In this document: piece after piece, positions 156 to 17,853 of the stretch
How positions within the stretch are numbered: position 1 is the stretch's first letter
How the letters are laid out: each line of letters opens with the position of its first letter
DNA from: a virus
Lineage: Duplodnaviria > Heunggongvirae > Uroviricota > Caudoviricetes
DNA: 27,413 bases
Virus record (IMG/VR): IMGVR_UViG_2634166457_000011
Direction: 5' to 3' (one strand)
The notes under the pieces: generated by a model
What the model was told of the DNA's origin: nothing
The model's database searches: none
What the model saw: the letters and a program-made list of their open reading frames with translations, nothing else
Position numbers and translations under genes: made by a program

Positions 156-160
156 GGGAT

Positions 161-859
161 TCACTGCGAAAGTTTGTTAATGGAAAGGTAGCCGCCAAAG
201 TTGCCGACGTTATTGCGAAACTTACAACCACTCAGGCATTTGCTGCATTTATCCTTCGTGATATCGGACGTCGGCTGGTCATATTCATCCGCGACCGCCG
301 GACCGTGATAACCGCACTCATCACCGCGATAGGTCCAGGTGCAGGTATTAGCCAGCATGATGCGCCCCGGAAAAACAGCACCGTCCGTTTCCGTCGGCGT
401 GGACAGTACAAAAGAGGCACTGACCGCGCTCAGTTCGCTGCACTGCTCGATGCGCCAGCGGCTGACCACCTCCTGCTCTGGGTCGGCGTCACTGTTTCCG
501 TTGACGAAGTTCACCGCATCCAGAAAACGGGCGTAAACCTTACGCCTGACCACCGTTCCGCCGACCAGACTCTGCAGGTCTTCCGCCATCCCGGTGACCA
601 TTCCGTGCAGGTTAGAAACCGTCAGTGTCGGACGGGCAGCACTGCCCTTGCCGTTCAGTTCAAATCCCGTCCCCTGAATGGGCTATGCCTGATACTGCCG
701 CCCCTGCCAGGTAACCGGCTCACCTTTTTCGTTCTGCTCATTACAGAAAAAATAACGTTCACCACCGACCTCTGTCAGATCGATTTCCCAGAGCACCACC
801 TGGGCTGACTGAGTGAGGCGTGTCGTCTCATGATGTGTTTCCTGTGGAATATCCTGCAT
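161..859 (-). pseudogene. L: Minor tail protein L (gpL, Fe-S tail tip protein) interrupted by an in-frame amber codon
   Basis: ATG at 859..857; translation MQDIPQETHH...EPVTWQGRQYQA then TAG (plus 683..685 = cta), after which the same frame continues PIQGTGFELNGKG...GMVTGMAED... to the stop at 161. The track ORF 161..601 is the C-terminal 146 aa with the Cys cluster (CSKCLSGCKF). Confidence 0.7.
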
Positions 860-868
860 CAGAGCCTC

Positions 869-1198
869 CTATGCCACGACCTGTTCAAAATCTGCCGTTA
901 TGGTTACCCACAGCGCCCCCACGCTTGCCGACCATTTACGACAAACCACCCTGATCGGTTTCCAGTCATAAGGTGGCGTCCACTGAAATGCACGGACGCC
1001 ACCGTGCCGTTCCAGAAAGGCTTTTAAAGATGGGTGTTCACATTTACGAACACGTATCGTCACGCTGTAAGTCGACAACTGGTTATTCAGTCCCGCCGCA
1101 CGACGCTGTTCATAACCATCGCCCAGCTTCACTGTCACCACTTTCGGCTCTGATACCACATTCATATCCGGGCGCACTTTCCAGTGAAACGTCTCCAT
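869..1198 (-). CDS. M: Minor tail protein M (gpM)
   Basis: 109-aa ORF between H and L with gpM-like sequence (KAFLERHGGVRAFQWTPPYDW); start overlaps the H stop (TAATG). Confidence 0.85.
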   Translation of the reverse strand: METFHWKVRPDMNVVSEPKVVTVKLGDGYEQRRAAGLNNQLSTYSVTIRVRKCEHPSLKAFLERHGGVRAFQWTPPYDWKPIRVVCRKWSASVGALWVTITADFEQVVA

Positions 1199-4100
1199 TA
1201 CCGATATGCTCCACTTAACCGACCACCATCACGGGCCTGCTGTTGCATAAAGTCCGCTGCCGCTTTTTTCCCGAGGTCATAAACCGCCTTCAGGGCAGCC
1301 GGACCTATCTGCCCGTTCGAGCCATCGTTATTGATCTCGATGTTGTACTGCGGGGAAAACATCGCCATACCTGAACCCCCAATATCCGCCACAACCCCCA
1401 GCTTACCGTCAGCACCACGACGCAATGGCAGAATGGCTTCAGGTCCCGCTTCCCCCATCACACCCGCGCCTTTTGCAAAAGCAAAAAACGTCGGACGGTT
1501 AACCACCGTGCCACTGTAACGACTCAAATCAGCAGACTGATAAATCCCCCCATTGGCATTCAGGGAAAGGCTGCTGAGATCAAATCCCAGTACACTGCCA
1601 ATCCCTTTTATCGATTTCATCATGGTTGCCTGCGCCAGGATTTTCGCCATATCTGACAGCACAGAAGAGGTGAAGGATTTGAAATTGAGTTTGCCGGTAG
1701 TGACAAAAGTTGCCAGGCCATTTCCCATGTTGCTGAAGGCTGACGAGAACACCTGTTCTGCTGTTTCTGCCGTATTATCTGCATCCACGGTAAAATCCTG
1801 AAATGCACGCAGGACTCCGTTTTTCCAGTTACCCTGCACAACTTCAAGCTGTTGCCAGTAACGGCGATTCTCATTCAGTTGTCGGTTCAGGCTCTCCGTC
1901 AGCGCCTGCTCGGCCTTTCTGTAGTCATCCGTGTTATATGTCCCTTTCTGCTCACTATCCCGCCTCAACTGCTCCAGCTGTTGCTGGTATTTCTGGCGAA
2001 GACTCAGTTGTACCTGATATCGCTGTCGCTGCTGATCACCCATACCCACCGTGGCGATATCCAGGTCATGTTGCTGACGCTGAGCGCGCTCTTCTTCAGC
2101 CAGTTGACTGGTCAGCTGAATTGTTTTTTTCTTCAGCTCGTTGAGTGCCGTCTGTTTCTGAAGCTCCTGCTGTTTTACATCCAGCAGCGTCAGTGCCTGA
2201 ATCAGTTCATCTTTACGGGCCAGCACACTCTTTTCATCTGCCGTCAGTTTTTTCCCGTCCAGGTCGCTGATGCGCTGCTGCAGAGCCAGAAGCTGTTTAT
2301 GCGCTTCTGTCATCCTTTCCGTGGCAATGCCTGCTGACTGTCTGGCAGCAGCAATCTGTCCTTCCACCTGTGCCTGTTGCTGACTGTACTGCAGCAATAA
2401 CCGGGTGGCCTCATCATTACGGGTTTCGCGTGTTTTTTTCTTACCGGATGCCAGGGCTTTCTCGTAACGTTCATTTTCACGTTGTATCGCCGCATCCCTG
2501 ACAGCCTGATCGGCGTACTGCATGGCATTAATACGCGCAATTTCACGCTGATGTCGTGCAGCTTCCGTTTCATTCATCCGGTTCAGTGCAGCATTTTCAG
2601 CATTACGGCGTTTCTGTTGCTCCTGATAATTCCGCTCTGCCTGCTCTTTTGCATCCTGCAAATCCTTCTGGCGTTTTTTCTCCTGAAGATCGTTAAGACG
2701 CTGCTGATCGTATTCAACCTGAGAAGATGACGCCGTCCAGGGGAGTCTTTTCGCCCGCGACACTTTCTCCTGCAAAGTGGCAATCTGCGCATCCAGCGAA
2801 TCTTCACGACCAATATTCATGGCCGCATCCCAGAACTGCTTCCACCAGTCAGACAAAGTTTGCAGCGTACTGCCCAGCGCATTGAGGTTATTATCAATAT
2901 CCGCAGTACGCCGACCGGTTTCCTCTGCCAGTGCAGACATGGCTATCCGTGCCGCATCACTGGACCGCCCCTGCTCTCCAAGGACGCGTATCTGCTCAAG
3001 CTGAGTGGCAGTAAGAAAATGCAGCTCATTGTCCAGAGACTTCGCGGCATTTACAGGATCATCCTTCAGCCGCTTAAACTGATTTATGGTATCGCTGACC
3101 GACTGGCCAACCGATCGCTCCATCTGTGCGGCAGCTCTCGCCACCATACCGATATCGTTTCCACGAAATGCACCACTCCCCACCACCTGAGCTAGCGCAC
3201 CGGCTGCAGCATGTTGCGTGATACCATTCCCGGAAATAGCACGACTGAGCGTCCACAGCTGCCCGGCAGTGACTCCGGCATAATGCCCCGTCAGCGACAG
3301 CTGGCGGTTAAATTCTTCCCCCTCCTTCTGACCGTCATACCAGGCTTTACCCAGACCATAGACGGCCGCGGTAATACCGCCAATAACCGCTCCTGGCATC
3401 ATGCCTTTCGGTGACATCAGTGTGTCTATCCATCCGGCACGGTTAGCCAGCGTTATCCCGGATCCCCTCAGCGCCCCTAAATTGCCGCGGGCCAGTTCAC
3501 CTATCAGAACGCCTATCTCCTGGCGGGCCGCTGCACTTTTCAGACCCAGCGAATGCGTGGCTTTTCCTGCCCGCTCCATTTTGCGGATATACACTTCTGC
3601 AGCACTGCTTACCCCCAGCTGGGCAGCCCTGGCACGAAGCAACTCAGAAGAAGAAAGATTCTGGCGGGTTGCCTGCTCTTTAAGCTGACGGATAAACGCC
3701 ACTTTCTGTCGGGTAGCCTCTGCCTCAGCCTGCGTAAGAACACGGGTTTTCGCCGTAACCTCAGAAATCAGCGCCAGATAATCCTGCTGACCAATCCCGC
3801 CACTGTTTCTGGCCTGTCGGATCTGCTGCTGAATACGCTGTAATTCCTGCAGCCCCGCACTGGCCTGTTTCACACTGTCAATCTGACGATAAAACGCAGC
3901 AGCCGCTTTATCCTGAGCCTCCGCCAGAGCCATGGCCTGCGCCTGTTCCTCGCGCATTTTCTGGCTCAGTGCCTCCATGCGCTGGCGGGTTTTCTCCACC
4001 TCGCGGGCCATGCGTTCATGAGCCTGTGCGTTCTTCTCCACCGTCTGCGCATGGACGGATGCGGCTGTTGCAGCCGAAGAAGCTGCCTGCGTTGTCTGCC

Positions 4101-4263
4101 GGGCGGCCTGAGTCTGACGCTCCATAAAACGCTGCATACGGGCAGAAGACCGTTCTGCATCGCTGGCTGCACCATTCAGAAGGTTTTTGATACGGGGAAT
4201 TTCATTTTTAAACTCTGCCGCATCAATCCCCAAATCAATGACCAGGTTGGCTATCTGGTCCAT
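1198..4263 (-). CDS. H: Tail tape measure protein (gpH-like)
   Basis: About 1020 aa, coiled-coil-rich; N-terminus MDQIANLVIDLGIDAAEF and C-terminus NNDGSNGQIGPAALKAVYD...RDGG resemble lambda gpH. The track ORF starts at TTG 4293; the ATG at 4263 has a GGAGG Shine-Dalgarno 6 nt upstream. Confidence 0.9.
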   Translation of the reverse strand: MDQIANLVIDLGIDAAEFKNEIPRIKNLLNGAASDAERSSARMQRFMERQTQAARQTTQAASSAATAASVHAQTVEKNAQAHERMAREVEKTRQRMEALSQKMREEQAQAMALAEAQDKAAAAFYRQIDSVKQASAGLQELQRIQQQIRQARNSGGIGQQDYLALISEVTAKTRVLTQAEAEATRQKVAFIRQLKEQATRQNLSSSELLRARAAQLGVSSAAEVYIRKMERAGKATHSLGLKSAAARQEIGVLIGELARGNLGALRGSGITLANRAGWIDTLMSPKGMMPGAVIGGITAAVYGLGKAWYDGQKEGEEFNRQLSLTGHYAGVTAGQLWTLSRAISGNGITQHAAAGALAQVVGSGAFRGNDIGMVARAAAQMERSVGQSVSDTINQFKRLKDDPVNAAKSLDNELHFLTATQLEQIRVLGEQGRSSDAARIAMSALAEETGRRTADIDNNLNALGSTLQTLSDWWKQFWDAAMNIGREDSLDAQIATLQEKVSRAKRLPWTASSSQVEYDQQRLNDLQEKKRQKDLQDAKEQAERNYQEQQKRRNAENAALNRMNETEAARHQREIARINAMQYADQAVRDAAIQRENERYEKALASGKKKTRETRNDEATRLLLQYSQQQAQVEGQIAAARQSAGIATERMTEAHKQLLALQQRISDLDGKKLTADEKSVLARKDELIQALTLLDVKQQELQKQTALNELKKKTIQLTSQLAEEERAQRQQHDLDIATVGMGDQQRQRYQVQLSLRQKYQQQLEQLRRDSEQKGTYNTDDYRKAEQALTESLNRQLNENRRYWQQLEVVQGNWKNGVLRAFQDFTVDADNTAETAEQVFSSAFSNMGNGLATFVTTGKLNFKSFTSSVLSDMAKILAQATMMKSIKGIGSVLGFDLSSLSLNANGGIYQSADLSRYSGTVVNRPTFFAFAKGAGVMGEAGPEAILPLRRGADGKLGVVADIGGSGMAMFSPQYNIEINNDGSNGQIGPAALKAVYDLGKKAAADFMQQQARDGGRLSGAYR

Positions 4264-4597
4264 AACGCACACCTCCGGAAATACCTTCCCCAAGATGCAT
4301 CAGTTCTTCGTCCGTTCGCTCCGGTATCCCGTTCTCTTCCGGTAAAAGGCTGAAATCAGCCACCGCAGCATCACTGCTGCCGGACACCATTCTCACGATC
4401 AATGCCTTCAGCGAGGCAAACTGCGCATCCATCCACACATCACTGAAGCTCTGCATCCGGAAATAATCGCCCCACTCACCAAGCTCAGTGGCCGACATTT
4501 CCGACAGCATCCGCCGCCAGTCTGCCCGCCGGAACTCCCGGGCAAGCCGCATGACAAACTGCATTTCCCGCGTCAGGACTTTTCCGGCGTCAGCGCC
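4235..4597 (-). CDS. T: T-frame segment of the G-T tail assembly chaperone (reached by -1 frameshift from G)
   Basis: The -1 frame relative to G is open from 4597 down to the stop at 4235 and overlaps the last codons of G; the position mirrors lambda G/GT. Confidence 0.6.
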   Translation of the reverse strand, partial: GADAGKVLTREMQFVMRLAREFRRADWRRMLSEMSATELGEWGDYFRMQSFSDVWMDAQFASLKALIVRMVSGSSDAAVADFSLLPEENGIPERTDEELMHLGEGISGGVRYGPDSQPGH

Positions 4598-4959
4598 TCA
4601 TGCTCATCATCCACGGCATTATCAATGGCCCCCATACCGCTCAGCGACAGAACCATCTCCGCCCCCGCACCCAGGGCATCATACGACCATGTTGTAATAA
4701 CGGATGCGCAAAGCGTCTCTACATCCTTAGACTGATCCGCATTCCACAGTGAGCGGGAAACCAGCCAGGCATTGATATCCATCCCCATCCGCAGAAAAGC
4801 AATCTGTCGTTCAGCCTCCGGCAGTTCTCCCTCCACGGCATCAAACTTTGCCGTTCGCTGCTGAACAAACGTCAGATATTCAATTCTCTGCAGCCCGGAC
4901 AGCTCACTGAGCACCACGGACTGTTTTTCATAATTAAACGTGTCCTGTTTCAGAAACAT
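4573..4959 (-). CDS. G: Tail assembly chaperone G
   Basis: Translation MFLKQDTFNYEKQSVVLSELSGLQRIEYL... resembles lambda gpG; GGAG 6 nt upstream of the ATG at 4959. Confidence 0.8.
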   Translation of the reverse strand: MFLKQDTFNYEKQSVVLSELSGLQRIEYLTFVQQRTAKFDAVEGELPEAERQIAFLRMGMDINAWLVSRSLWNADQSKDVETLCASVITTWSYDALGAGAEMVLSLSGMGAIDNAVDDEHEALTPEKS

Positions 4960-4975
4960 CATGTTCTCCACCTGC

Positions 4976-4999
4976 AAAAAAGCCCCGCATAACCGGGGC
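4976..4999 (-). terminator. Stem-loop plus T-tract between major tail gene V and chaperone gene G (attenuator-like)
   Basis: Minus strand reads GCCCCGGTTATGCGGGGC followed by TTTTTT; 6-bp GC stem at 4982..4987 / 4994..4999. Confidence 0.45.
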
Positions 5000-5019
5000 A
5001 AATGATGAGTATCGTCCTG

Positions 5020-5763
5020 TTAACCTGCTGCGCTGACAGTCACCGCAGTCACAGCCACAAAATTCCCGTCAGCGGTCATGCCCACAATGCTGACACTGCC
5101 CTGCTTCACGCCTTTTACCGTGGCCACAAGTCCGTTCAGGGTAACCGTGGCAGTCTGTGGATCTGACGAATGCACACTGATCGCTTTGTCACTGGCTCCG
5201 TCAGGTTTTACTGTAAAGGTCAGCGTGGTGGTTGCTCCCACTTTTACACTGGCAGACGCCGGTGATACTGTCAGCCCGGTAACGCTCACGGTTTCAGTGC
5301 CTTCCTCTGCCAGATACGGACGCCCCACACCGCTGATTTTCACAGTGCGGGTCATCACGTCTTTTGAGGCAATGGTTTTACCCAGTGAGCTCAGCCAGCC
5401 ACGGAAAACATCAACAGTGCCGTTGGGATATTTGATACGAAACGCGCAGACTTCACCGGAGTCGAACAACTGAACCAGTTTTTTCTGCCCGCTGTCACCC
5501 GGACGCCAGGCCAGCGTCGCCGAAGTATCACCAACGGATTTCTGCCCCTGGGTTGTCGTTTTCCAGTCTGCATCTTCATCATCGAGATAAGTGTCATCTT
5601 CTGCATCAGCGGTCATTTCGCCAGGTTGCAGATCCTTCACCATCGCAAGACGCAGCCAGTCAGTGTCCGACAAAGGGTTCGCAAACGCATCGCCGTTGCC
5701 GGTATACATCCAGAACGTCGTCCCCGCACCTTTCGTCTTTGCCAGTGGATTTGGTGTGGTCAT
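5020..5763 (-). CDS. V: Major tail protein V with C-terminal Ig-like domain
   Basis: MTTPNPLAKTKGAGTT...YLDDEDADW...PNGTVDVFRGW...VGRP resembles lambda gpV; C-terminal T/S/V-rich beta segment. The ATG at 5763 is chosen over the upstream track start. Confidence 0.85.
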   Translation of the reverse strand: MTTPNPLAKTKGAGTTFWMYTGNGDAFANPLSDTDWLRLAMVKDLQPGEMTADAEDDTYLDDEDADWKTTTQGQKSVGDTSATLAWRPGDSGQKKLVQLFDSGEVCAFRIKYPNGTVDVFRGWLSSLGKTIASKDVMTRTVKISGVGRPYLAEEGTETVSVTGLTVSPASASVKVGATTTLTFTVKPDGASDKAISVHSSDPQTATVTLNGLVATVKGVKQGSVSIVGMTADGNFVAVTAVTVSAAG

Positions 5764-5773
5764 TACCACCTCC

Positions 5774-6187
5774 TTAATTCGTGTACGTGATCTGGTACGT
5801 GATTTCCGCCATCGCCCAGGTGGCCATCTCATTATCACGTTGATAGTTAAAACCGAGTGGGTTCAGGGTGTCGATGAGTCCGGAAAGTGCCGGTACATCA
5901 TTCAGGGCCGGGAAAATGGTGCTCTCCATCCACATATCCAGCTCTGAATCCGGTGCCTGTGCCCGGATGAAGACGGCAATATGCAGAACAGCCTGCCAGT
6001 CATCTTCATCCGTCATTTTTCCGGTGTACTGAGCATCACTCAGCCACACCGCCACGGCAGGCAGTTCCTGCGCATCAATAAATGCCGGAAGCCCGTCAAA
6101 AAACGTGGCGCTGTCTCCACACTGTTCCCGAAGGCGTGCCAGTACGACCTGGCGGATTTGTGTATGTCGGTTCATCGGGTCAGCCAT
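5774..6187 (-). CDS. U: Tail terminator protein U
   Basis: Motifs ATFFDG, PAVAVWL..YTG, LHIAVF, PDSELDMWMES, ITYQITY match lambda gpU as I recall it. Confidence 0.8.
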   Translation of the reverse strand: MADPMNRHTQIRQVVLARLREQCGDSATFFDGLPAFIDAQELPAVAVWLSDAQYTGKMTDEDDWQAVLHIAVFIRAQAPDSELDMWMESTIFPALNDVPALSGLIDTLNPLGFNYQRDNEMATWAMAEITYQITYTN

Positions 6188-6762
6188 AACCTCAGTTGTT
6201 GTTTCAGTGCATACCCCAGCTGTTTCGGCATTTCCGCAGCAATGATGTGGTCGCGGGCATCTTCAAATGCCTGTGTCAGCGGTCCGGACAGCGGGATTTT
6301 CACTACCTCCACAGGAAGACGATTTTTTCTTGGCCTGCCCTGATGGTCATGCCCTGTTGCAAAACGCGCTTCAGGAAGACGCCTCAGAACATGCCAGCGG
6401 CCATTCGCCAGTTGCTGAACAAATGCCCCCCGGAAAAAGTATTTTCCCACTCTCAGTCCTTCACCAGCACGCCGCCGTGTTGTGTTCAGTTTGATGGCGG
6501 GCAGATTGCCCCGGTTAACGCGGATCCTGGCCGTCATTTTTCCTGACGGACTGGCTTTAAACACCCGGACACGCTGACGTACCAGTTTCAGGGGGATCCC
6601 TTTCACCTGGTTATCTCCCGCAACGGTATTCCCGGCAACCTGCCGGGTGGCAACCGAGACCGCTTTCTGTGCCACACGGTTTATCGCCCATGCGCTGGCC
6701 TGTGGCACCATACGGGTATCAAGGCTGTTCAGATTGCGGATGGCATTCTCAAGCCCCTTCAT
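6172..6762 (-). CDS. Z: Tail completion protein Z
   Basis: Motifs RIRVNRGNLP, GAFVQQLANGRWHV, VVKIPL, QLGYALKQQLR match lambda gpZ as I recall it. Confidence 0.8.
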   Translation of the reverse strand: MKGLENAIRNLNSLDTRMVPQASAWAINRVAQKAVSVATRQVAGNTVAGDNQVKGIPLKLVRQRVRVFKASPSGKMTARIRVNRGNLPAIKLNTTRRRAGEGLRVGKYFFRGAFVQQLANGRWHVLRRLPEARFATGHDHQGRPRKNRLPVEVVKIPLSGPLTQAFEDARDHIIAAEMPKQLGYALKQQLRLWLTR

Positions 6763-6773
6763 CCCACACCTCT

Positions 6774-7049
6774 TTACTCAATAAAGATCATTGGCTTACC
6801 GTTAAAGCGTTCATGCCGTGTGACCGTCCATTGTTGTCCGTCATAAACAACGCGATCCCCGCGCCGTGGGCGGTATCCCGAAGAAAACACCACCAGAGAG
6901 ACCGCAGGTCCGGACAGAGCATTCAGCTCTGCCAGTGTTTCTCCCGGGATCACAGTCATATCGACATCATTAATCGAGGCTGTCTTTCCCATCTTTCTGA
7001 CCGTGATCGCATCCATACGCGCTGCCAGCCGGGAAAAGGGATCAGACAT
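6774..7049 (-). CDS. Head-tail joining protein (FII-like, small beta protein)
   Basis: 91-aa ORF between the head-decoration-like gene and Z, at the lambda FII position; weak recalled similarity. Confidence 0.5.
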   Translation of the reverse strand: MSDPFSRLAARMDAITVRKMGKTASINDVDMTVIPGETLAELNALSGPAVSLVVFSSGYRPRRGDRVVYDGQQWTVTRHERFNGKPMIFIE

Positions 7050-7365
7050 TGAGTTTTACCGGCACTTCTTCTGCACTGGTTCCGGCATCTGCCCAGACAA
7101 CCCCGACCAGCGGATCAGAGCCGCTGTTAGTCAGCTGAACTTTTCCGGACTTCAGATAAACCTTCTTACCCGTTTTCATGTCATCCGTTTTCAGCTTAGG
7201 CAGCATAAACACACCTTCGGTCATGCCGTCGCCTGTTTCACCCTGTGGAATATCGGTCAGCGCCACCGCAAAAACATCACCCACCTGCACCAGCTCTCCG
7301 CTGCTGATGGCTGCACTGGCAACAATCGCCACCGTTTTTCCTTCTTCTACAAAATTCTTTGCCAT
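7042..7365 (-). CDS. DUF2190-like small head protein (decoration or head-closure candidate)
   Basis: ORF downstream of the capsid gene; start ATG at 7365 with GGAG 7 nt upstream; Gly/Val-rich beta-type sequence. Confidence 0.5.
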   Translation of the reverse strand: MAKNFVEEGKTVAIVASAAISSGELVQVGDVFAVALTDIPQGETGDGMTEGVFMLPKLKTDDMKTGKKVYLKSGKVQLTNSGSDPLVGVVWADAGTSAEEVPVKLNV

Positions 7366-7378
7366 AACTGTCTCCGCA

Positions 7379-7428
7379 CAGCCCCGTTCAGGGGCTGATT
7401 TCAGGTACAAAAAAAGCCCTTACGGGCC
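7379..7428 (-). terminator. Two stem-loops immediately after the protease-capsid gene, the first followed by a T7 tract
   Basis: Minus strand reads GGCCCGTAAGGGC then TTTTTTT (plus 7407..7428), followed by a 7-bp stem CAGCCCC-TGAAC-GGGGCTG (plus 7379..7397). Confidence 0.45.
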
Positions 7429-7451
7429 ATCAGAGTTGTTGTCTGCGACGT

Positions 7452-9410
7452 TTACGCCGTACATTTCACCAGACCGCGGTGATCAACTGGCGCGACACCG
7501 GCGTCAATACGCACTTTCGTTGTCACGCCATCCACACTGAAGCCCTCCATCTGATCAATATATGGCGTATCCACACCGTTGAGATAAGCCACTTCAATCG
7601 TATCGGAGCCTTTTGACGCAGCCAGGTAGAAGGTGGTCTGGCTGTTATCATCAAGACGAGGCTCTGCAATAACGGTCGCAAAATCTTTCACCGGGTTAAT
7701 AATACCGGCGTTAATGTCAGCCCCCTTGACACTTGAGGAGCGAATGACCTGGTTAGCAACAGACTCCATCGCCGTCGGTACCAGTACGAACGCAGGACGA
7801 ATATTCAGATGACGCTCCCCCTCTTTCTGAACGCGCATCAACTGGCGGGCTTTATCCAGCGATGCCACGTCCATTGCAGCGCTCTCCAGTACGTTTGCAT
7901 GTTTCGCTTTATCGAACAGACTTACATTATCTGTGGAGATTTTCGGGTTAGACGTCAGAATGGCATAAACCAGATCGGCAATAGTGGATTTCGCCGCACG
8001 GCCCAGTTTCATCGGGACATCGGTCAGCATATTCAGATCATCATTGATAATGGCCTGACGGGTGATACTGAACAGCTCGCCATAGGTCGCCAGTGCAATA
8101 GTGGCCTGTTTATCTCCGGTGGTGACGTATTTATATTCCGCCCCTTCACGCACCTGACGCAGAGCACTGAAGCCCCCCATACCCACACGATGGGCAATTT
8201 TAAAATCAGACAACTGACCTTTCCGCGTCCATTGTTCATAGGTTTCAGGAGCATCTTCCCAGCCCTGCAGAATGGCTTTGTTCGCAACATCCAGCAGAAT
8301 ATTACCGAAGTCAGACGTACTGTGGGTGAACGCCGCACCGACCATCTGCATCGGGTTATAACCGGAAACCCCAATACCCCGTTCAGTCAGTGACATACGG
8401 GCATATTCACGCAGGGTCATCCCGTTGTAGACATTATCACGTTCGGTTTTTTCAAATCCGGCACGCGCCATCAGCGCCTGGCGGATCCCGTCCCCCACAA
8501 AATTACCGTTACCAGCATAAATATGAGCCGGTGTATTTTTATTGGATGGCGTGGACTCGCGCCCCATCTCGTTCAACAGCTTTTCGCGGGCCTGCTCCAG
8601 CGAACACTCAGGATCGGCAAGACACTGAGCCTGCAGCGTCTGATAACGCCCGCCAAACATGGCAAACAGATCATTAATACCGTTTACACGCGCTTTTTGC
8701 TCTGCCAGTACCTGCGCACGGATACTGTTTTCATCCACCACGGGTGCTGCTGCCTGCACTGGCGTCCGGGAGGCTGCAGGTTCATCATCCTGTACGCGTG
8801 GAGCACTGTTGCGTGGCGGAGTAATCATGTTTCGAATGGATTCCGGCATCTTTTTAAATTCCTCTGTACGTTTTGACTGAATACATGCCATTGCCTTAAC
8901 GGCTGGCGTCACCTGATCAGCAAATCCATGTGCCAGACATTCGGCACCGGACATCCAGGTCTCATCCGCCAGCATGGCAGCAATTTCATCGGTGGTTTTC
9001 CCGGTTTTCTGTGCATAAGCGGGTAACAGAACCGCCTCAACCTTATCGAGCAGGTCGGCATAGGTGCGCATGTCCTCCGCATCACCGCCCGTAAAGCCAA
9101 ATGGTTTATGAATCATCATGAAGGTGTTTTCCGGCATAATGACCGGGTTTCCCACCATCGCAATGACCGACGCCATTGACGCCGCCACACCGTCGACATA
9201 AACGGTAATGGACGCACCATGTGTTTTCAGCGCATTAAAAATGGCGATGCCTTCAAAGACATCGCCACCCGGTGAATTGATATGGAGATTAATGTGGGTG
9301 ATATCGCCCAGTGCATTCAGATCACTGATAAACTGCTTCGCTGTAACACCCCAGAAACCAATCTCGTCATAAATATAAATATCCGCGTCACTCTGGTGAC
9401 CAGCCTGCAT
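7452..9410 (-). CDS. Prohead protease (ClpP/S14-like) fused in-frame to the major capsid protein
   Basis: N-terminal region IYIYDEIGFWGVT...HINSPGGDVFEGIAIFNAL...VDGVAASMASVIAMVG is ClpP-like; about 430 C-terminal residues are capsid-like; one uninterrupted ORF. Start taken at ATG 9410, just after the portal stop; the track ORF extends to 9671 and overlaps portal. Confidence 0.8.
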   Translation of the reverse strand: MQAGHQSDADIYIYDEIGFWGVTAKQFISDLNALGDITHINLHINSPGGDVFEGIAIFNALKTHGASITVYVDGVAASMASVIAMVGNPVIMPENTFMMIHKPFGFTGGDAEDMRTYADLLDKVEAVLLPAYAQKTGKTTDEIAAMLADETWMSGAECLAHGFADQVTPAVKAMACIQSKRTEEFKKMPESIRNMITPPRNSAPRVQDDEPAASRTPVQAAAPVVDENSIRAQVLAEQKARVNGINDLFAMFGGRYQTLQAQCLADPECSLEQAREKLLNEMGRESTPSNKNTPAHIYAGNGNFVGDGIRQALMARAGFEKTERDNVYNGMTLREYARMSLTERGIGVSGYNPMQMVGAAFTHSTSDFGNILLDVANKAILQGWEDAPETYEQWTRKGQLSDFKIAHRVGMGGFSALRQVREGAEYKYVTTGDKQATIALATYGELFSITRQAIINDDLNMLTDVPMKLGRAAKSTIADLVYAILTSNPKISTDNVSLFDKAKHANVLESAAMDVASLDKARQLMRVQKEGERHLNIRPAFVLVPTAMESVANQVIRSSSVKGADINAGIINPVKDFATVIAEPRLDDNSQTTFYLAASKGSDTIEVAYLNGVDTPYIDQMEGFSVDGVTTKVRIDAGVAPVDHRGLVKCTA

Positions 9411-9423
9411 CCTGAACCAGGAA

Positions 9424-10932
9424 TTATTCTTCGGACTGGTCGTCGGTGTGCTGCGGCTCCTGTCGTTTCGTTGCGGCACTGCTGCCTCCTTTATCACTGG
9501 CCGGATCGGTATCAAATACCAGATCCAGCTTGCGGTTTTCATCAATTTCTGCCTTGCGCCGACATTTGACATCATCCGGATTACGACCACCTGCACGTAC
9601 CCAGTCTGATTCTGTCGCCGCTCCACCACGAATCTGAATTTTCCAGGCCTCAGCCTCCTTAACAGGGTCAATCCACGGCATCACCGGTCCGGAATACACC
9701 GCGGTATACAGTGAAGAACGGTCAAGATCGCGGGGTAGCCTGATAACACCGGATGCCACAGCCTGTTTCAGCCAGGCACGATACATCGGGCGGGTGACGG
9801 CACCAATAAACCAGTCCTGCAGGATCAGGTAGCCATCAGTGGATTCAACCAGCTCCTGACGCTGGGCGCTGTAAGTGCCGTTATAGTTGCGCGCTGTACT
9901 GGAAAAACTCAGACGACTGCCCGCCGCCACGGCACGCAACTGACCATTACGAAAAGTTTCAAGGTTAGGATTGGGGCGATCCGACTTCACCATTCCGATT
10001 TCTTCGCCGGGTTTCAGATCGTCGTAAATAATGCCTGGCTGAATGGTAAGCTCGCGTTCATTCTCCTTGCTGTCATTACCATCCGTTTCATAGCTCTGTC
10101 CGTCGCCTTTGCGGATGTACATCCCCAGAGCAGCAGCGATCCTTGCTGCAGTCAGCTCAGAATCTTCATATTCTTTCAGGGCACTGAGGCGGATCAGCAC
10201 ACCGGACAATAAAGACGTCCCGCGCATCTGGTGCAGACGGCGAACAAATTTAAGATGCAGCATTCGCTCTGCATCCACTTCTTTGGTTTCCATCTGCCGT
10301 CCGGATACAGGACGACTTTTATACACCAGATATTTTTCGGGACGCCCCCAGTCATCAACAAACACGCCCTGATTCAGCCTGTTGCTCTCATCACTGGTCA
10401 TGGGAATAAAGTCTGGCTCGAGTGCCTCCAGCCAGAAATGAACACCGGCAGAAGGCGTCAGGCTGTTTATGCGCCCGGAAACCATCTGGGCAAACACCTC
10501 ACCATCGCGCAGCCAGGTACGCAGCATCAGACGTTCCAGCATCGGACGGGTAAACTGCCCGGTAACTTCCGGACTGACAGACCATTCACTCCATCGGGTG
10601 CGTATCTCCGCTGCCAGATCACGGGCAATGGCCCCATTGCGTAATACCGGATGTGGCTCGACAATAATCCCGTTTTTCCCCACCACCCGTTCTTCCAGCT
10701 TGTCAAATACACCAATGACCAGATCGTGGTTGTTATCAAGGTAACGGGCCTGCTCACGTAACGACACGGCCCCGTAGAGGCTTAACTGGTCGGCAGTTCG
10801 GTTTTCCCGCCGGGCTTTGTGTGTCCGCGTCGTTTTTACGGCCTCATAAGCCTGGATCACCGCCCGGGAACGCAGCCTTGCCGCTTTCCATCCTGGTGAA
10901 AAAACGCCAATCACATCATCAAGAATTGCCAT
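9424..10932 (-). CDS. Portal protein (lambda gpB family)
   Basis: About 500 aa between gpW and the protease/capsid gene; start ATG 10932 overlaps the W stop (TGATG). Confidence 0.85.
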   Translation of the reverse strand: MAILDDVIGVFSPGWKAARLRSRAVIQAYEAVKTTRTHKARRENRTADQLSLYGAVSLREQARYLDNNHDLVIGVFDKLEERVVGKNGIIVEPHPVLRNGAIARDLAAEIRTRWSEWSVSPEVTGQFTRPMLERLMLRTWLRDGEVFAQMVSGRINSLTPSAGVHFWLEALEPDFIPMTSDESNRLNQGVFVDDWGRPEKYLVYKSRPVSGRQMETKEVDAERMLHLKFVRRLHQMRGTSLLSGVLIRLSALKEYEDSELTAARIAAALGMYIRKGDGQSYETDGNDSKENERELTIQPGIIYDDLKPGEEIGMVKSDRPNPNLETFRNGQLRAVAAGSRLSFSSTARNYNGTYSAQRQELVESTDGYLILQDWFIGAVTRPMYRAWLKQAVASGVIRLPRDLDRSSLYTAVYSGPVMPWIDPVKEAEAWKIQIRGGAATESDWVRAGGRNPDDVKCRRKAEIDENRKLDLVFDTDPASDKGGSSAATKRQEPQHTDDQSEE

Positions 10933-11144
10933 CAGAACCTCGCCAGCCGGTACCCGGGATGCCCCCGTCGTCGTGTAATCAGAGCCGCAAGGCGGCGCTC
11001 CCACTCCTGCCGTCCCTGCCGGATCTCAGATAAGTTTTCCATGGTCATCTGCTGACCATTAAAGGTGACGGATTTTCCGTCCAGCACCGCCATTTCAGCT
11101 TCCGTATAACGCTGAATCATGGCTTCGATATCATTCTGGTTCAT
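10932..11144 (-). CDS. Head-tail joining protein gpW-like
   Basis: 70-aa ORF between terminase large subunit and portal, C-terminus RRRGHPGYRLARF resembling gpW; start overlaps the terminase stop. Confidence 0.6.
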   Translation of the reverse strand: MNQNDIEAMIQRYTEAEMAVLDGKSVTFNGQQMTMENLSEIRQGRQEWERRLAALITRRRGHPGYRLARF

Positions 11145-13240
11145 AACCATCCTCCGGAAGTCAGCCAGGGGTTAACATCGTCAGTTACTGTTTTCTTCCG
11201 TTTTTGTTTTTTAACAGGCGTGGATACCGGTTCCGGTGAGGGTGACGGTTCGGTACTGTCCGGGACACACTCCAACCAGGTTTCCCGGCTCGCCCACTCC
11301 GGTGCATCCGGCCAGCGGATCTTTTCGTATCCATGCAGAATGACCAGAGCCTCGGCATACACCATCAGGTCAAAAGCTTCGTTGGCACCGCGACCCGGCT
11401 TACTCCATTTCCCGTCACTGCTCCGCTCTTCATACGTCAGTTCGTCGTAAAACCAGCTCCCCAGCCAGTCAGGGAAATGCACATAGCCGGGACCTGGCGA
11501 GTCACGCCATAACGCGTTATTCACCCGGTCTTTCAGTGCATCCGTCTGAAGAAGCCAGAGCGGCACATCACCTGCGGCCTGCGCCCGTCGGCCCGTTCGT
11601 CCGGTGTTATCAGGGAATGTACGGGTGATCAGTTTTGCGCGCCGGATGCTGTCGCCCTTAAACAGGTAAATACGTTTACCAAGGCCATCACGACGGCAAC
11701 GACGCCAGAATTTATAGGCATTATCAGTGACCCCGTCTTCACCGCCGGAGTCCAGCGCCATTGCCATCAGTCGCATTTGTTGAGAAGGATCGGAGGCCAG
11801 CGGCCAGCTTTTATGAAAAACATCCGTCAGCAGGACATCCCAGTCTTCCGGATAGCTGGCCGGATCAATTCGCTGGCTCTCCCCGTCGCAGTCACTGCGC
11901 AATGACTGCGTGATATTGTAACGATCAATAATCCAGCGTTCGCCACGACTGCCATAGCCCGTTACCTGAACCACAAAACGGCGATGACGTCCCGCCTGCA
12001 CATCCACTGTCGCCACAAGGAAATTAACGCCATCCGGCACACTGCAGGAAGGAACTGGCTCTGCCCGCTGCTCAAGCAGTTCACTTTTTCGTTGCTCCAT
12101 GCTGGCACGAGGAAGATAAGGCAATCCCCAGTCGGTGTTGATAACCGCCCTGAGTGTTTCTTCGCTTCCTGTCGCTTCATACTCCTGTTCTGCAGTCAGT
12201 AATTTGTAAACCAGTTGCGCCCAGGTCTGATACGCAGCAGCTGGCCCTTCCATCCAGAAACTGGCGATACGGGAGCGGCGCGGTTCACCGGAAACGTTGC
12301 CGTTACGATCAATGACCTGACCTTCACGCAACCAGACTCCTGCACTATTGAGCTCACGCTTTTTCTCCGCAGTGATAATGCCGCTGCAGTGCGGGCAAAG
12401 TAGATACGCCGCCTCACTGGCTTTAAAGGGATCCGGTTCATTACGGTAGCCGGTCATGGCATCCATAGCTGGCTGAAAATATTCACCGCAGTGCGGACAT
12501 GGCCAGTACCAGCGGCGGCGGTCACCACGATTGTAAAGGGAAAGAATACCAGTCGTCGGTGGCGCTTCATGAGGCGACTTACGTCGCCATTTACTGTCGC
12601 AGATGTCACGTCCCGGCGAGCTCTCCACCAGAGTCATCCCGGCGGACATAAATGTGGTGGTACGTTTTGAGGCCAGGGAGAAACCATCACCCTCGCTGTC
12701 GATATTCTCCGGAAAACGGTCGTAATCGGTTAAGGCGACAAACCGGTAATCCGACGACGACATAATGTTGACCGAGGGCCAACCAATTTTAAGGAACGAG
12801 CCATCCCTGAACGTCTTATCATGGACATTATTGTCGTTACGACGTGGACTCATTCTTTTCTTTACCGCCGCACTGCTTCTGAACGTTCTGTCGAGGCGCT
12901 TTTTAGAATGCTCGCGGGCCTTATCTTCGGTCATCTGCACAACGAGCATGTCCGAAGGATCGCAAACGATGGTATAGACAATCCATCCATCGATCAGACC
13001 AATGGTCTTCCCTGTTCGCGCAGGACCAACAAAAATCACCGCATCGTATTCACGCGATGCCAGGCAGTTCATGGGCTCAATGATGTAGGGTGTCAGTTCA
13101 GGATCCCATGGCACCGAGTTACCAGCCCCCTTGGGAACACGCATGAATTTTTTAACAGCCTCCGAAATCGGCATGCGACGTGGTGGGGAAAATCCTGCCG
13201 ATATGTCCCTTCCCAAATTTCGGGCTGATGAAAAACCCAT
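11141..13240 (-). CDS. Terminase large subunit (GpA family)
   Basis: 699 aa, Walker A-like FVGPARTGKT, Cys motifs CPHCGEYF and CPHCSG, strong SD AGGAGG before the ATG at 13240. Confidence 0.9.
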   Translation of the reverse strand: MGFSSARNLGRDISAGFSPPRRMPISEAVKKFMRVPKGAGNSVPWDPELTPYIIEPMNCLASREYDAVIFVGPARTGKTIGLIDGWIVYTIVCDPSDMLVVQMTEDKAREHSKKRLDRTFRSSAAVKKRMSPRRNDNNVHDKTFRDGSFLKIGWPSVNIMSSSDYRFVALTDYDRFPENIDSEGDGFSLASKRTTTFMSAGMTLVESSPGRDICDSKWRRKSPHEAPPTTGILSLYNRGDRRRWYWPCPHCGEYFQPAMDAMTGYRNEPDPFKASEAAYLLCPHCSGIITAEKKRELNSAGVWLREGQVIDRNGNVSGEPRRSRIASFWMEGPAAAYQTWAQLVYKLLTAEQEYEATGSEETLRAVINTDWGLPYLPRASMEQRKSELLEQRAEPVPSCSVPDGVNFLVATVDVQAGRHRRFVVQVTGYGSRGERWIIDRYNITQSLRSDCDGESQRIDPASYPEDWDVLLTDVFHKSWPLASDPSQQMRLMAMALDSGGEDGVTDNAYKFWRRCRRDGLGKRIYLFKGDSIRRAKLITRTFPDNTGRTGRRAQAAGDVPLWLLQTDALKDRVNNALWRDSPGPGYVHFPDWLGSWFYDELTYEERSSDGKWSKPGRGANEAFDLMVYAEALVILHGYEKIRWPDAPEWASRETWLECVPDSTEPSPSPEPVSTPVKKQKRKKTVTDDVNPWLTSGGWL

Positions 13241-13248
13241 TATTCCTC

Positions 13249-13776
13249 CTAGAGACTCTCTCCTTCCTCATCAGGAATTAATTCAGCAGCACAAGCCTCG
13301 TAGGATTTTTCCTGAAGAGTGTATCGCAGGTCATCAATGGCCTGCTGTACAACGCCGACGGCCTGAGGAGTCAGAGCGCAATCGCGTTCAAGAACATCCG
13401 GAATTGTCTCCAGAACCTGGACGACAGCCTTTCTCATGGACGAATAGACGATGACTACTTCATCAACTGGGATGAGTTTTCGCTGCTCCTTTTCCAGCTT
13501 GATCCTTTCATTTTCAGACTGGTACCAGTCCTTTCTCTCTTTCGGCTCCATACGGGATGGATCATGAACAGAGTCTGCTGCCTCATGCTTCACACTAAAC
13601 AGGGCGGGCCCGACATGCTGCAGGGCGTAAACGGGGTTCCCCCTGACAGTCGCAGCCACAGGAGTGTTGGCCGCGAGGAGCCGTTTTTTTACTGTGTCCC
13701 GGTGAAGCCCAAAGGCCTCGGCGATTTTAAAAACACTCCAGTAATAAGCATCACCGATCCCGCTCACATTTGACAT
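13249..13776 (-). CDS. Terminase small subunit (Nu1-like, N-terminal HTH)
   Basis: Translation MSNVSGIGDAYYWSVFKIAEAFGLHRDTVKK...; GGAG 6 nt upstream of the ATG at 13776 (the track ORF starts 4 codons earlier). Confidence 0.8.
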   Translation of the reverse strand: MSNVSGIGDAYYWSVFKIAEAFGLHRDTVKKRLLAANTPVAATVRGNPVYALQHVGPALFSVKHEAADSVHDPSRMEPKERKDWYQSENERIKLEKEQRKLIPVDEVVIVYSSMRKAVVQVLETIPDVLERDCALTPQAVGVVQQAIDDLRYTLQEKSYEACAAELIPDEEGESL

Positions 13777-13939
13777 AAGCAACTCCATCTGGCAGGTGAA
13801 AATCAGGTTTATTTATATATTTCAATTAATTGCAAACTGGTCTAATGACAGGAAGAAAAAAATATTGTACAGGTGAAAAGAGAAATAACTTTTAATTATC
13901 AATAAATTACCAAACATGCTGCCGCCGCCATGGAAATGC

Positions 13940-14010
13940 AAAAACTAGCCTTTTTCCGCGACGCTCCCGCCCCGTGGCAGGGGCCCCCACCGGGAGGACC
14001 CGACAGCCTG
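13940..14010 (-). other. Candidate cos site (cosQ-cosN-cosB) with cosN about 13961..13972
   Basis: Minus strand reads GTCGGGTCCTCCCGGTG...CCACG GGGCGGGAGCGT CGCGGAAAAAGG, which resembles my recollection of the lambda cos junction (CGGGTCCTTTCCGGTG...TTACG GGGCGGCGACCT CGCGGGTTTTCGC). It lies about 180 bp upstream of Nu1, as in lambda. Confidence 0.55.
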
Positions 14011-14152
14011 ACAGCCGTGACGAGCATCTGATACAGCGCTTTACATAATGGCATAGGAATAATTCAGAAGGACATCACAGCATGCCCACACAAATTAGTG
14101 TGAGTGTCCTGTTTCTTCCTACGCACAGGACTGACGAGCATGAGGGGAAAAT

Positions 14153-14320
14153 ATGCGAACCATAAATGCCTCATCTTCAGCAATGCAGCCGGCATCCGAA
14201 CAGGACGATATTGTAAATTCACCTAATTACGAGGACATTGCAGTAGTTGAATTGCAGCTCTGTATTAGCATGACAGTGACAGAATGCGACATTGACTCTG
14301 TCACAGGTGAAATAGTTTGA
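14153..14320 (+). CDS. Hypothetical small acidic protein (55 aa)
   Basis: ATG at 14153 preceded by GAGGGG; ORF not in the track because it is under 60 aa. Confidence 0.2.
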   Translation: MRTINASSSAMQPASEQDDIVNSPNYEDIAVVELQLCISMTVTECDIDSVTGEIV

Positions 14321-14340
14321 ATGATTAGCAGTTATGGTGC

Positions 14341-14547
14341 TCAGTCAACCACCAGGGAATAATCCTTCGAATTCTTATCGTGCTTCACCAACGCTGCCTC
14401 AATTGCCCTGAATGCTTCCAGAGACACCTGATGTTCTATACATGCAATTACAACATCCGGGTAACTCATAGAAATGGTGCTATTAAGCATATTTTTTACA
14501 CGAATCAGATCCAACGAGAGTTCATCAGCAGATTGTTCTTTATTCAT
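14341..14547 (-). CDS. Hypothetical moron protein (68 aa)
   Basis: ORF with GGAG 8-9 nt upstream of the ATG; low-GC island. Confidence 0.4.
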
Positions 14548-14847
14548 TTTGTCGCTCCATGCGTTTGCTCGTCATCTAGCGGTTAAAATATTACTTCAAA
14601 TCTTTCTGCATAAAAGAGGAAAAGTATGAAAGTTTGAGTACATCGACCTTACATACATCTGTCGGTTGCATATCCCTCCTGGATGCCAGCAAGGCTCAAC
14701 TTTGTTACGCAATCAACACTATTCATTAAAAACAGGCTTAATATTTGACATAAATCATCAACAAAACACAAAGAGGTCAGACCAGATTGAAACAATAAAC
14801 ACGATAATGCAAACTACGCGCCATCGTATCACATGGAAGGTTTACCA

Positions 14848-15258
14848 ATGGCTCAGGCTGCCATTTTTAAAGAAATATTCGATCAAGTGCGTAAAGATTT
14901 AAACTGTGAATTATTTTATTCTGAGCTAAAACGTCACAATGTCTCACTTTATATTTACTATTTAGCCACAGATAATATTCACATTGTGTTAGAAAACGAC
15001 AACATAGTGTTAGTAAAAGGACTCAAAAAGGTTGTAAATGTTAAATTCTCCAGAAACAAACATCTTATAGAGACCTCCTATAATAAGTTGAAATCAAAAG
15101 AAATCACATTTCAACAATACAGGAAAAATCTTGCTAAAGCAGGAGTTTTCCGATGGGTTACAAATATCCAGGAACACCAAAGATATTACTATGCCTTTGA
15201 TAACTCATTACTATTTACTGAAAGCATCCAGAAAACTACACAGATCTTACCACGCTAA
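14848..15258 (+). CDS. ydfO: DUF1398 family protein (YdfO-like)
   Basis: 136 aa from the ATG at 14848 (GGAAGG SD); low GC; resembles the Qin prophage protein YdfO as I recall it. Confidence 0.55.
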
Positions 15259-15409
15259 ACCATAACGTCCGGCTTCTCTCACTCCTGAGCCGGACTGCAT
15301 TGGTTTAATAAAAACCATCAACAATTGTGATTTAGATATTCGGAACCATTCAAATATAACAAAACCCCGTAAAAACGAGGTTTATGGATAAATTTTATTA
15401 TTGAACACA

Positions 15410-15583
15410 TCAGATTAAATTAATCTTGACATCATAGCTTTCAAGACCCGTCATTTTTTCCCGTGCGGTAAACTGAATACTGGTAACTTCTTTCCCGGTT
15501 TTTTTCTTAAGTTCAATAATTTTTTTTGTTATATATTCAGAAATATCTGCTTCTGCTTTTGTTTTTAAGTCTTCAATATTCAT
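15410..15583 (-). CDS. gnsB: GnsA/GnsB family protein (57 aa)
   Basis: Hand-translated: MNIEDLKTKAEADISEYITKKIIELKKKTGKEVTSIQFTAREKMTGLESYDVKINLI; AAGAGGAA SD; absent from the track (under 60 aa). Confidence 0.65.
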   Translation of the reverse strand: MNIEDLKTKAEADISEYITKKIIELKKKTGKEVTSIQFTAREKMTGLESYDVKINLI

Positions 15584-15754
15584 CATTTCCTCTTTTAGTC
15601 TGTTATGACTTTCCAGTTACACAGTAAGTCGATTATATGGTGCAAACGTGTAAAAGATAAGATGAAACATCGCAATAATCAACATACGATAGTCTAAATT
15701 TTACACAAACAGACAAAGAGAATTTTCCTGAATTATCAATGCAATAGCATCAAA

Positions 15755-15910
15755 TCAACTCAAGAGCCTTATTGCTGCTTCCAGAATTTCTTCTGAAGTA
15801 ACATGTCGATCCGCGGCTACATAAATGACTTTATGATCTCCGGTCAGAGATGGAAACCCTGCGGCCATTACAGTAAGGTGTGTTTTTTCGCCATTTGGAT
15901 ATTCACGCAT
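15755..15910 (-). CDS. ynfN: YnfN-like small protein
   Basis: MREYPNGEKTHLTVMAAGFPSLTGDHKVIYVAADRHVTSEEILEAAIRLLS from an internal ATG of the track ORF; start choice uncertain. Confidence 0.5.
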   Translation of the reverse strand: MREYPNGEKTHLTVMAAGFPSLTGDHKVIYVAADRHVTSEEILEAAIRLLS

Positions 15911-16027
15911 GATGGTGTTAACTCCAGTCATCGCTGGCACTACCACTGCTGGTTCAGAGTTAAAAAAACTATGATTTTTTCATGATGTTACCGTAGTATG
16001 TGAGTATCCATCGAATAGACACCAAGC

Positions 16028-16050
16028 AAAAAAGCTCCCGAAGGAGCCTT
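16028..16050 (-). terminator. Intrinsic terminator downstream of cspI
   Basis: Minus strand GCTCC-TTCG-GGAGC followed by TTTTTT. Confidence 0.45.
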
Positions 16051-16254
16051 CATTTTCACTTTTTTAAATCCAACGACAGACGGCTGGCATTTAAGTATTG
16101 TGAAATATTATCAAATGTAATCATCATTGATTTACAAAAGATACATTTTGCCCCGAAAGGATTCATGTCAGAAACATCAAAAGATGATGTTCTATACTGG
16201 GAACCATGACAACACGGGCATCTAAAGTGAATATGGTTTGTAATATTGTCTACC

Positions 16255-16467
16255 TCAAAGCGCCACTACATGAACAGCGGCAGGACCTTTAGGTCCGTTC
16301 TCAATACCAAATTCAACTTCCTGATTCTCAGTTAATGTTTTGAAATCGTTGCTCTGAATTGCTGAGAAATGGACAAACACATCTTTGCTGCCATCTTTCG
16401 GCGTGATGAAACCAAAACCTTTTTCAGGGTTAAACCATTTCACTAAACCAGTCATTTTGTTAGACAT
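16255..16467 (-). CDS. cspI: Cold shock protein, CspA family (CspI-like)
   Basis: 70 aa, [23 protein letters not shown]...VFVHFSAI; canonical RNP1/RNP2 cold-shock domain motifs. Confidence 0.85.
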
Positions 16468-16829
16468 AATTATTACCTTTTGAAGAAATTAGCCCTTGGG
16501 CAGAATGGTCCGAAAAAAAATATCAGAGAGAAAAACCAACAAGGAAATCTCAAGAGGTACAAATAATAAAATTATAACAATGACTGCTTCAGATAAATTT
16601 GTAACAAACCAGAACACCATTAACGCATGATTAACCACCCATAGCAAGGATTACTTTTGTAAAGAAAAACACAGCAATGAAAGAATAGCTTTATTTATTA
16701 ATAAAACGTGTCATTCTGATTAAGACCTTTTATCTTACCCTTAAGATTTCAGGAATTTTGGCTCATGGAAGAGTCCTTTTTATTTAAATTTTACATTCCG
16801 CGATGTAAATGTTCCGATTTAATATTACC

Positions 16830-17853
<1,024 letters not shown>

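Follow-up and report, generated by a model that had tools for sequence, protein, structure and literature searches.

The head module examined here raises the question of how a tailed phage builds its capsid from a single long gene. In phage lambda the capsid gene E is separate, the protease C is SppA/S49-like and the scaffold Nu3 is nested in the 3' end of C. In the window, meaning the whole stretch of 27,413 nucleotides analysed from a virus of the Caudoviricetes (IMG/VR record IMGVR_UViG_2634166457_000011), one frame lies between the portal gene and the decoration gene, and a preliminary description had proposed that it encodes protease, linker and capsid in one polypeptide. Is this frame one genuine gene, where does it begin, and which parts of its product would shape, cut and form the shell? 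Our answer is that the gene at 7452-9479 (minus strand) serves as head gene in a lambdoid (mEp460/cdtI-type) Escherichia coli prophage, that it belongs to the "tripartite capsid gene" family of Gifsy-2, and that its product would follow the assembly pathway set out below, a reading that we hold, taken as a whole, with high confidence.

The ORF listing of the window gives a single open frame on the minus strand from 7452 to 9671, with the stop codon at 7452-7454. The preliminary description had taken this frame from ATG 9410 (7452-9410, about 650 aa); the single ORF stands, and it does measure 1959 nt and 652 aa from that codon, but the start itself gives way to another. The true start is most likely GTG 9479-9477, which lies 23 codons (69 nt) further upstream and yields a CDS of 2028 nt. 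The arrangement AAGGAGG-N5-GTG found there is identical in an Stx2d phage and in mEp213. Directly before the Met encoded by ATG 9410, an S-W-F/Y motif is kept across seven phage homologues despite synonymous codon changes (tcc/tcg/agc/agt and ttc/ttt/tac/tat), and the residue at the ATG 9410 position is itself Ile in three of the seven. Among 50 diverse full-length homologues, the position of Met24 is occupied by Ile in 32 and by Met in only 9, with Trp21 conserved in 39 and Phe/Tyr22 in 43. Residues 23-26, Met24 included, form a confident beta-strand of the protease fold in the AlphaFold model, and RefSeq both annotates the 2028-nt, 675-aa CDS and holds an identical 675-aa protein. Because GTG 9479 is taken as the start on these grounds (ribosome-binding site, conserved upstream residues, RefSeq and model), the gene spans 7452-9479, and its first 56 nt coincide with the last of the portal gene. 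Table 1 gives the coordinates of this and the other features.

Table 1. Features of the fusion gene and its neighbours in the window; residues are numbered along the 675-aa protein, and subtracting 23 gives the 652-aa numbering from ATG 9410.
Feature	Coordinates	Strand	Remarks
Lambda-family portal gene, directly upstream	9424..10932	-	PF05136, E 1e-81; RefSeq CDS 1509 nt; stop codon 9424-9426
Ribosome-binding site and putative start	9477..9491	-	AAGGAGG (9491-9485), 5-nt spacer, GTG (9479-9477); inside the 3' end of the portal gene
Fusion CDS: ClpP-like prohead protease / scaffold-like linker / major capsid protein	7452..9479	-	675 aa, 73.5 kDa, from the favoured start
N-terminal extension, residues 1-19	9423..9479	-	Poorly conserved and gap-rich; predicted disordered, pLDDT <50 for residues 1-17; overlaps the portal frame
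ClpP-like (MEROPS S14-type) serine protease domain, residues ~20-220	8820..9422	-	
Catalytic Ser101, in GVAASMAS	9177-9179	-	Aligns with the ClpP catalytic Ser
Catalytic His124, in MMIHKP	9108-9110	-	Aligns with the ClpP catalytic His
Glu173	8961-8963	-	At the ClpP catalytic Asp position by alignment
Disordered spacer, residues 221-249	8733..8819	-	Pro/Ala-rich, variable in length
Three-helix middle segment, residues 250-307	8559..8732	-	Helices 250-273, 280-288 and 294-307; scaffold-like or "delta-domain-like"; no Pfam family
Junction loop, residues 308-326	8502..8558	-	ESTPSNKNTPAHIYAGNGN; length varies among homologues
HK97-fold major capsid protein domain, residues 327-675	7455..8501	-	Compact alpha/beta domain, ~38 kDa
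Terminator-like hairpin, then T7	7408..7428	-	GGCCCGTAAGGGCT; 24 nt past the stop codon of the fusion gene
Head decoration/cement gene (DUF2190 / Phage_cement_2), directly downstream	7042..7365	-	PF09956 (formerly DUF2190), E 2.3e-20

The Pfam model CLP_protease matches aa 23-168 of the 652-aa version (E 4.5e-36; 124.9 bits against a cutoff of 20.2), and the sequence of the N-terminal domain also matches ClpP chains in the PDB (E 4e-16). The NCBIfam equivalog-domain model NF045542, "head maturation protease, ClpP-related," scores 215.7 bits against a cutoff of 120, whereas the equivalog models for cellular ClpP all fall far under their cutoffs, TIGR00493, for example, scoring 59.6 against 308.6. 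The domain is a relative of the phage head-maturation proteases, not cellular ClpP proper, the tetradecamer with its Clp ATPase. Nor is it a protease of the SppA/S49 type, the SppA domain model scoring 22.3 bits against a cutoff of 155. The structure model contains the ClpP (crotonase-like) fold, which can be superposed on that of active ClpP at 1.7-3 Å. All 50 of the homologues aligned (33-52% identity) keep Ser101 and His124, in motifs of the form G-x-A-A-S-M and M-I-H-x-P, respectively. Position 173, where canonical ClpP has Asp, is acidic in 46 of the 50, with Glu in 41 and Asp in 5. Because Ser101 and His124 are intact and invariant, the protease is, judged from its sequence, very likely a working enzyme whose triad has Glu in place of Asp.

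No Pfam family matches the stretch between CLP_protease and Phage_capsid_4 in the 652-aa version. Domain limits here and elsewhere were drawn from the AlphaFold model together with conservation and indel profiles of the 50-sequence alignment. That alignment (33-52% identity) was the input for a model with a mean pLDDT of 86.7, while a model computed from 18 close homologues (75-100% identity) reached a mean pLDDT of 36 and was discarded. The spacer that follows the protease has the lowest conservation (0.20-0.29) and the most indels in the alignment, and its residues 224-246 have pLDDT below 50. The helices of the middle segment, by contrast, are modelled at pLDDT 84-96 and were already helical in the discarded model; the segment is moderately conserved, and R264 is invariant. 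At the junction loop, pLDDT dips at residues 316-318, and indels occur at columns 301-318 of the seven-phage alignment. This loop is most likely the site at which maturation cleavage would free the capsid domain.

The capsid domain matches Pfam Phage_capsid_4 (PF25209) over aa 352-649 in 652-aa numbering (E 8.3e-55; 187 bits against a cutoff of 27) and, more weakly, the Mu gpT family PF10124 (E 3.7e-8). Used as a single-sequence query against the PDB, the capsid part gave only a marginal match (E 2.6e-4); a profile search made the assignment solid, finding the Mu-gpT-type capsid chains 8rkc/8rkx (E 1.3e-14) and 9jod (E 1.5e-10). The HK97 fold is seen in the three-dimensional model, and major capsid proteins in BFVD match the C-terminal domain with TM scores of 0.67-0.79. 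The coat domain belongs to the HK97-fold family, in its Mu gpT-like branch (PF25209 / PF10124).

Profile searches and structure prediction, which the preliminary description had named as the means of placing the domain boundaries, delimit protease, linker and capsid domains, in keeping with the architecture it had sketched. It had allowed that the N-terminal part might prove not to be a protease; domain searches came out for a protease, and the ClpP/S14 type that it had assigned agrees with the Pfam, PDB and NCBIfam matches, the ClpP fold and the intact Ser and His. Its linker resolves, in the alignment and the AlphaFold model, into a disordered Pro/Ala spacer and a confident three-helix segment, and its capsid-like C-terminal domain is an HK97-fold major capsid protein by Pfam, PDB profile and model comparison.

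No separate scaffold or capsid gene occurs in the head module. Other ORFs between the portal and decoration genes are short, out of frame and inside the big ORF, so that the lack of a separate gene there, remarked on from the start, is confirmed by the ORF listing and the RefSeq annotation alike. Upstream of the portal gene lie a small gene at the W position, with a sub-threshold Pfam match only (DUF6148), and then a gpA-type large terminase; the phage MD8 gene at the same position as the former is annotated as head-to-tail joining protein W. Beyond the decoration gene is a head-tail gene of the Gifsy-2 family (PF13856). All six phages inspected share one gene order, with the portal first, then the fusion, the decoration gene and the head-tail joining gene. 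A decoration gene occupies the same position in Gifsy-2, Fels-1, MD8 (as "head decoration protein"), mEp213 and the Providencia and Stx2d phages, and its product corresponds, by analogy, to the partner that stabilises the expanded shell in Gifsy-2-type phages. A rho-independent terminator is annotated in mEp213 at the same place as the terminator-like hairpin of the window.

The fusion is widespread. The whole CDS recurs at 98% identity or more in sixteen phage records, mEp460, cdtI, Ayreon and Tritos among them, and a protein search found 74 phage records whose homologue spans 80% or more of the protein. Identities are 77% for the long-tailed Stx phages, 74% for mEp213/LLS, 72% for Fels-1 and 69.6% for Gifsy-2, and, further off, 64% for a Providencia phage and 57% for the Pseudomonas phages MD8, F10 and JBD68. 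In a clustering of 1.8 billion proteins at 50% identity, well over 100 cluster representatives can be aligned with it from end to end; they are 35-60% identical to it and 640-740 aa long. Of 5,426 complete E. coli genomes, 2,125 (~40%) have the gene, 2,017 of them at no less than 80% coverage, under the RefSeq name [quoted passage not shown]

The arrangement is already known: it was described in Gifsy-2 in 2010, and it has its own NCBIfam model and PHROG family. Model NF045540 (scaf_prot_MCP1), [quoted passage not shown] scores 985.7 bits against a cutoff of 475 with the match running over profile positions 2-651 of 652, and PHROG 133 is matched end to end with E = 0; the present protein is a typical member of both and differs in nothing from them. 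Reportedly, the Gifsy-2 protein carries a ClpP-like protease at its N-terminus and a major capsid protein at its C-terminus, with ~200 residues between them that may act as scaffold, and Gifsy-2 capsids are said to be well modelled with HK97 gp5 and lambda gpD. The Gifsy-2 gene (STM1034.3n, NC_010393) shows its identity to the present one over the full length, with the same order of protease, middle region and major capsid protein, as does the Fels-1 paralogue over its full length. Synteny with Gifsy-2 is the same through terminase, W-like gene, lambda-family portal, fusion, decoration, head-tail joining, Z, U and V, and there, too, the start of the fusion overlaps the portal gene. Gifsy-2 and Fels-1 differ from the present gene only in sequence divergence, in small indels in the Pro/Ala spacer and junction loop, and in host, Salmonella rather than E. 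coli. One paper credits the "tripartite capsid gene" of Gifsy-2 to Effantin et al. (2010, Virology 402:355) and likens the head proteins of mEp213-type phages to it (PMC12315714); two others cite the same work for a Gifsy-2 capsid that is T=7 (PMC8814770) and for a trimeric decoration protein at its 3-fold axes (PMC8538268). Virion proteomics on members of this family was sought in the literature, with nothing usable found.

The resemblance to HK97 gp4 plus gp5 lies in a helical, scaffold-like N-terminal segment (the delta domain) that is fused to an HK97-fold coat and presumably removed by the phage protease inside the procapsid. The HK97 protease is the product of a separate gene and belongs to the herpesvirus-assemblin-like S78 family. 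Two reports give the HK97 gene order as portal, protease, capsid (bioRxiv 10.1101/2025.06.14.659615) and describe a shell that owes its stability to covalent cross-links and not to a decoration protein (PMC8538268). With lambda the locus shares a lambda-family portal, a gpA-type terminase, a lambdoid genome context and a trimeric decoration protein as cement, but here the protease is of the ClpP type, the capsid domain lies in the same ORF and the coat protein resembles Mu gpT. Two partial fusions known from other phages come together in this arrangement, scaffold with major capsid protein as in HK97 and protease with scaffold as in lambda C/Nu3. A "major capsid and protease fusion protein" is also routinely annotated in genome announcements of Arthrobacter and Microbacterium phages (actinobacteriophages). 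The model NF045541 (scaf_prot_MCP2) matches residues 220-672 only and scores 401.9, below its cutoff of 525; it and the actinobacteriophage fusions follow the same principle, maturation protease and major capsid protein in one ORF, but their protease parts are of other families.

The pathway that we propose builds on the domains, catalytic residues, synteny, fusion integrity and family membership, each of them directly established, and its steps are modelled on HK97-like heads and Gifsy-2. Translation would begin at the strong ribosome-binding site, where the portal gene has not yet ended. Together with the lambda-family portal, the full-length protein would build a T=7 procapsid that encloses the N-terminal ~320 residues of each subunit, with the helical segment in the role of the HK97 delta domain or of lambda Nu3. 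Crowding in the shell might then activate the protease, which would cut at the junction loop (~308-326) and degrade the N-terminal ~320 residues, leaving a mature coat protein of ~38 kDa; what is known of the family favours such self-cleavage at maturation, as the preliminary description had presumed. After DNA packaging the shell would expand, and trimers of the DUF2190/cement protein would clamp it. By a rough estimate, ~415 subunits carrying ~35 kDa each would place ~15 MDa of cargo inside, roughly half of a T=7 procapsid, which is feasible but crowded.

Two other readings would undercut this account at its base. One is that the fusion is an artefact in which a frameshift, or a sequencing or assembly error, has joined a protease(-scaffold) gene to a capsid gene, a concern that the preliminary description had also voiced. 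Tailed phages do more commonly have separate genes, the match is confined to the protease part in ~1,600 phage records, and the databases do hold erroneous chimeras of this same locus in the form of 1159-aa portal-plus-fusion "proteins." The frame, however, runs uninterrupted through the 16 near-identical and 74 diverse phage genomes, the 2,017 E. coli genomes at high coverage and the divergent cluster representatives, of which there are more than 100; a curated NCBIfam model covers its product from end to end, and the linker shows conservation at the protein level. Because the ORF recurs at full length in independently sequenced phages and thousands of genomes, the comparative data rule out such joining and identify a single real gene, and we regard the chance of an artefact as negligible. 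The other reading makes the ClpP-like domain catalytically dead and a pure scaffold, with maturation left to a host protease or proceeding without cleavage. Its one foothold is the third triad residue, Glu instead of Asp, and set against it are the invariance of Ser101 and His124 in conserved motifs, the close superposition of the fold on active ClpP and the score above the cutoff of the "head maturation protease, ClpP-related" model, which together make an inactive domain very improbable.

A different kind of alternative concerns not what the protein is but how many products the gene yields. If the procapsid interior is as crowded as estimated, there would be room for a second translation product lacking the protease. 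In the clade of Gifsy-2, an internal start at Met211 (Met188 in 652-aa numbering; 8847-8849) might produce a majority of scaffold-MCP chains beside a minority of full-length ones carrying the protease, a scheme that likens the gene to the C/Nu3 nesting of lambda and to an HK97-type delta-MCP. An ATG with GAGG or AGGAG 9-11 nt before it is present in seven of seven Gifsy-2-clade phages (from Escherichia, Salmonella, Providencia and Pseudomonas), Met211 falls at the very end of the protease fold in the AlphaFold model, and an excess of the short product would, by the estimate above, ease the packing of ~415 internal protease domains. Yet the position is Met in only 3 of the 50 diverse full-length homologues and otherwise Ile, Val, Ala, Pro or Thr, the Shine-Dalgarno-like GAGGA amounts to conserved Glu-Glu codons, and a spacing of 11 nt is long. 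An internal start common to the whole family is rejected on the same count of 3 in 50, for all that ATG and motif recur in each of the seven close phages; one confined to the clade we consider unlikely, if clearly less so than either an artefact or a dead protease. Were it real, the nested start would let translation set the dosage of protease in the procapsid, with lambda-style nesting inside a capsid gene.

[quoted passage not shown] The points seen include WIDPVKE/LRPG, GGA/RQNQ, DTD/RPVI, SSA/QRND and KRQE/RSTP, the slash marking the change of frame, and some of these proteins carry additional C-terminal frameshifts. To judge by these junctions, the 1159-aa proteins are scattered 1-nt indels or errors at places where the fusion frame happens to be open upstream, up to 9671.

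As a discovery the locus has small value, the Gifsy-2 architecture having been described experimentally in 2010 and the RefSeq naming being correct in thousands of genomes. Its practical value lies in the annotation of a gene that is inconsistently labelled across phage records, where it appears as "head-tail preconnector protease C," "Nu3," "major head protein," "terminase protein," "putative protease" or "scaffold protein," and where several records use a start codon that makes the fusion gene too short or too long.

The fusion gene, which encodes the protease, linker and major capsid protein, begins within the portal gene, with which it overlaps out of frame by 56 nt (window 9424-9479, minus strand); the portal C-terminal coding sequence contains AAGGAGG-N5-GTG of the fusion gene. 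Upstream of this start, the fusion-gene frame runs without a stop to 9671, and the start is placed inconsistently among phage records, which hold versions of 652, 675 and 707 aa. Product labels vary as well, including "head-tail preconnector protease C", "head-tail preconnector protein Nu3", "Major head protein", "putative protease", "scaffold protein" and, in PV340537/PV340538, even "terminase protein". In VT1-Sakai, the gene is interrupted by IS629.

Apparent triple fusions of portal, protease and capsid are numerous in public databases (see table). A programmed event behind these proteins is disfavored, as the point at which the portal frame switches to the fusion frame differs in nearly every one of them, and some carry additional frameshifts. 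They look instead like the products of scattered single-base indels or sequencing errors.

Features in and around the fusion gene (positions in the window; P-numbers denote database proteins)
Feature	Position	Strand	Remarks
Small gene	6774-7049	-	3' of decoration gene; match to Pfam PF13856, "Gifsy-2"
Second stem-loop, GC-rich, CAGCCCC-TGAAC-GGGGCTG	7379-7397	-	Directly ahead of decoration gene RBS
Terminator-like hairpin, GGCCCGTAAGGGCT + T7	7408-7428	-	24 nt past capsid gene stop
In-frame ATG (Met211) with GAGGAA 9 nt upstream	8847-8863	-	End of protease domain
Apparent triple fusions, 1158-1159 aa: P0005, P0007, P0009-P0014, P0016, P0017	~9430-9671 (equivalent)		
Apparent triple fusions, 1135 aa (P0043/P0044) and 1080 aa (P0070/P0071)	~9430-9671 (equivalent)		

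Met211 is a candidate internal start, with the GAGG core of its Shine-Dalgarno-like motif 11 nt from the ATG. Codon and motif are kept together in all seven Gifsy-2-clade phages examined; in the wider family, Met occupies position 211 in three of 50 homologs and is not conserved.

Past the capsid stop codon, the position of the terminator-like hairpin is equivalent to that of an annotated rho-independent terminator in mEp213. In a late operon under Q antitermination, such a putative terminator might set how strongly the capsid gene is expressed relative to the genes downstream.

For the small gene that follows the decoration gene, the database names look misleading: Pfam describes PF13856 as "ATP-binding sugar transporter from pro-phage", and the RefSeq name is "DNA breaking-rejoining protein". 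A head-tail joining protein is the more likely product, given the position of the gene and its weak similarity to Phage_attach (E 0.0018).

The window is a lambdoid prophage of mosaic composition. E. coli Ecol_316 carries a prophage that is 99.4% identical to positions 1-14624, which extend from the tail tape measure gene to terminase and the cos region. Phages Tritos and cdtI match this part with their left arms at about 98-99% identity, while 14625-27413 is matched only in patches, at 87-94%. GC content falls to 35-40% at 14-20 kb; the equivalent region of the related prophage carries lysis genes and cargo of the cspI/ynfN/gnsB type.
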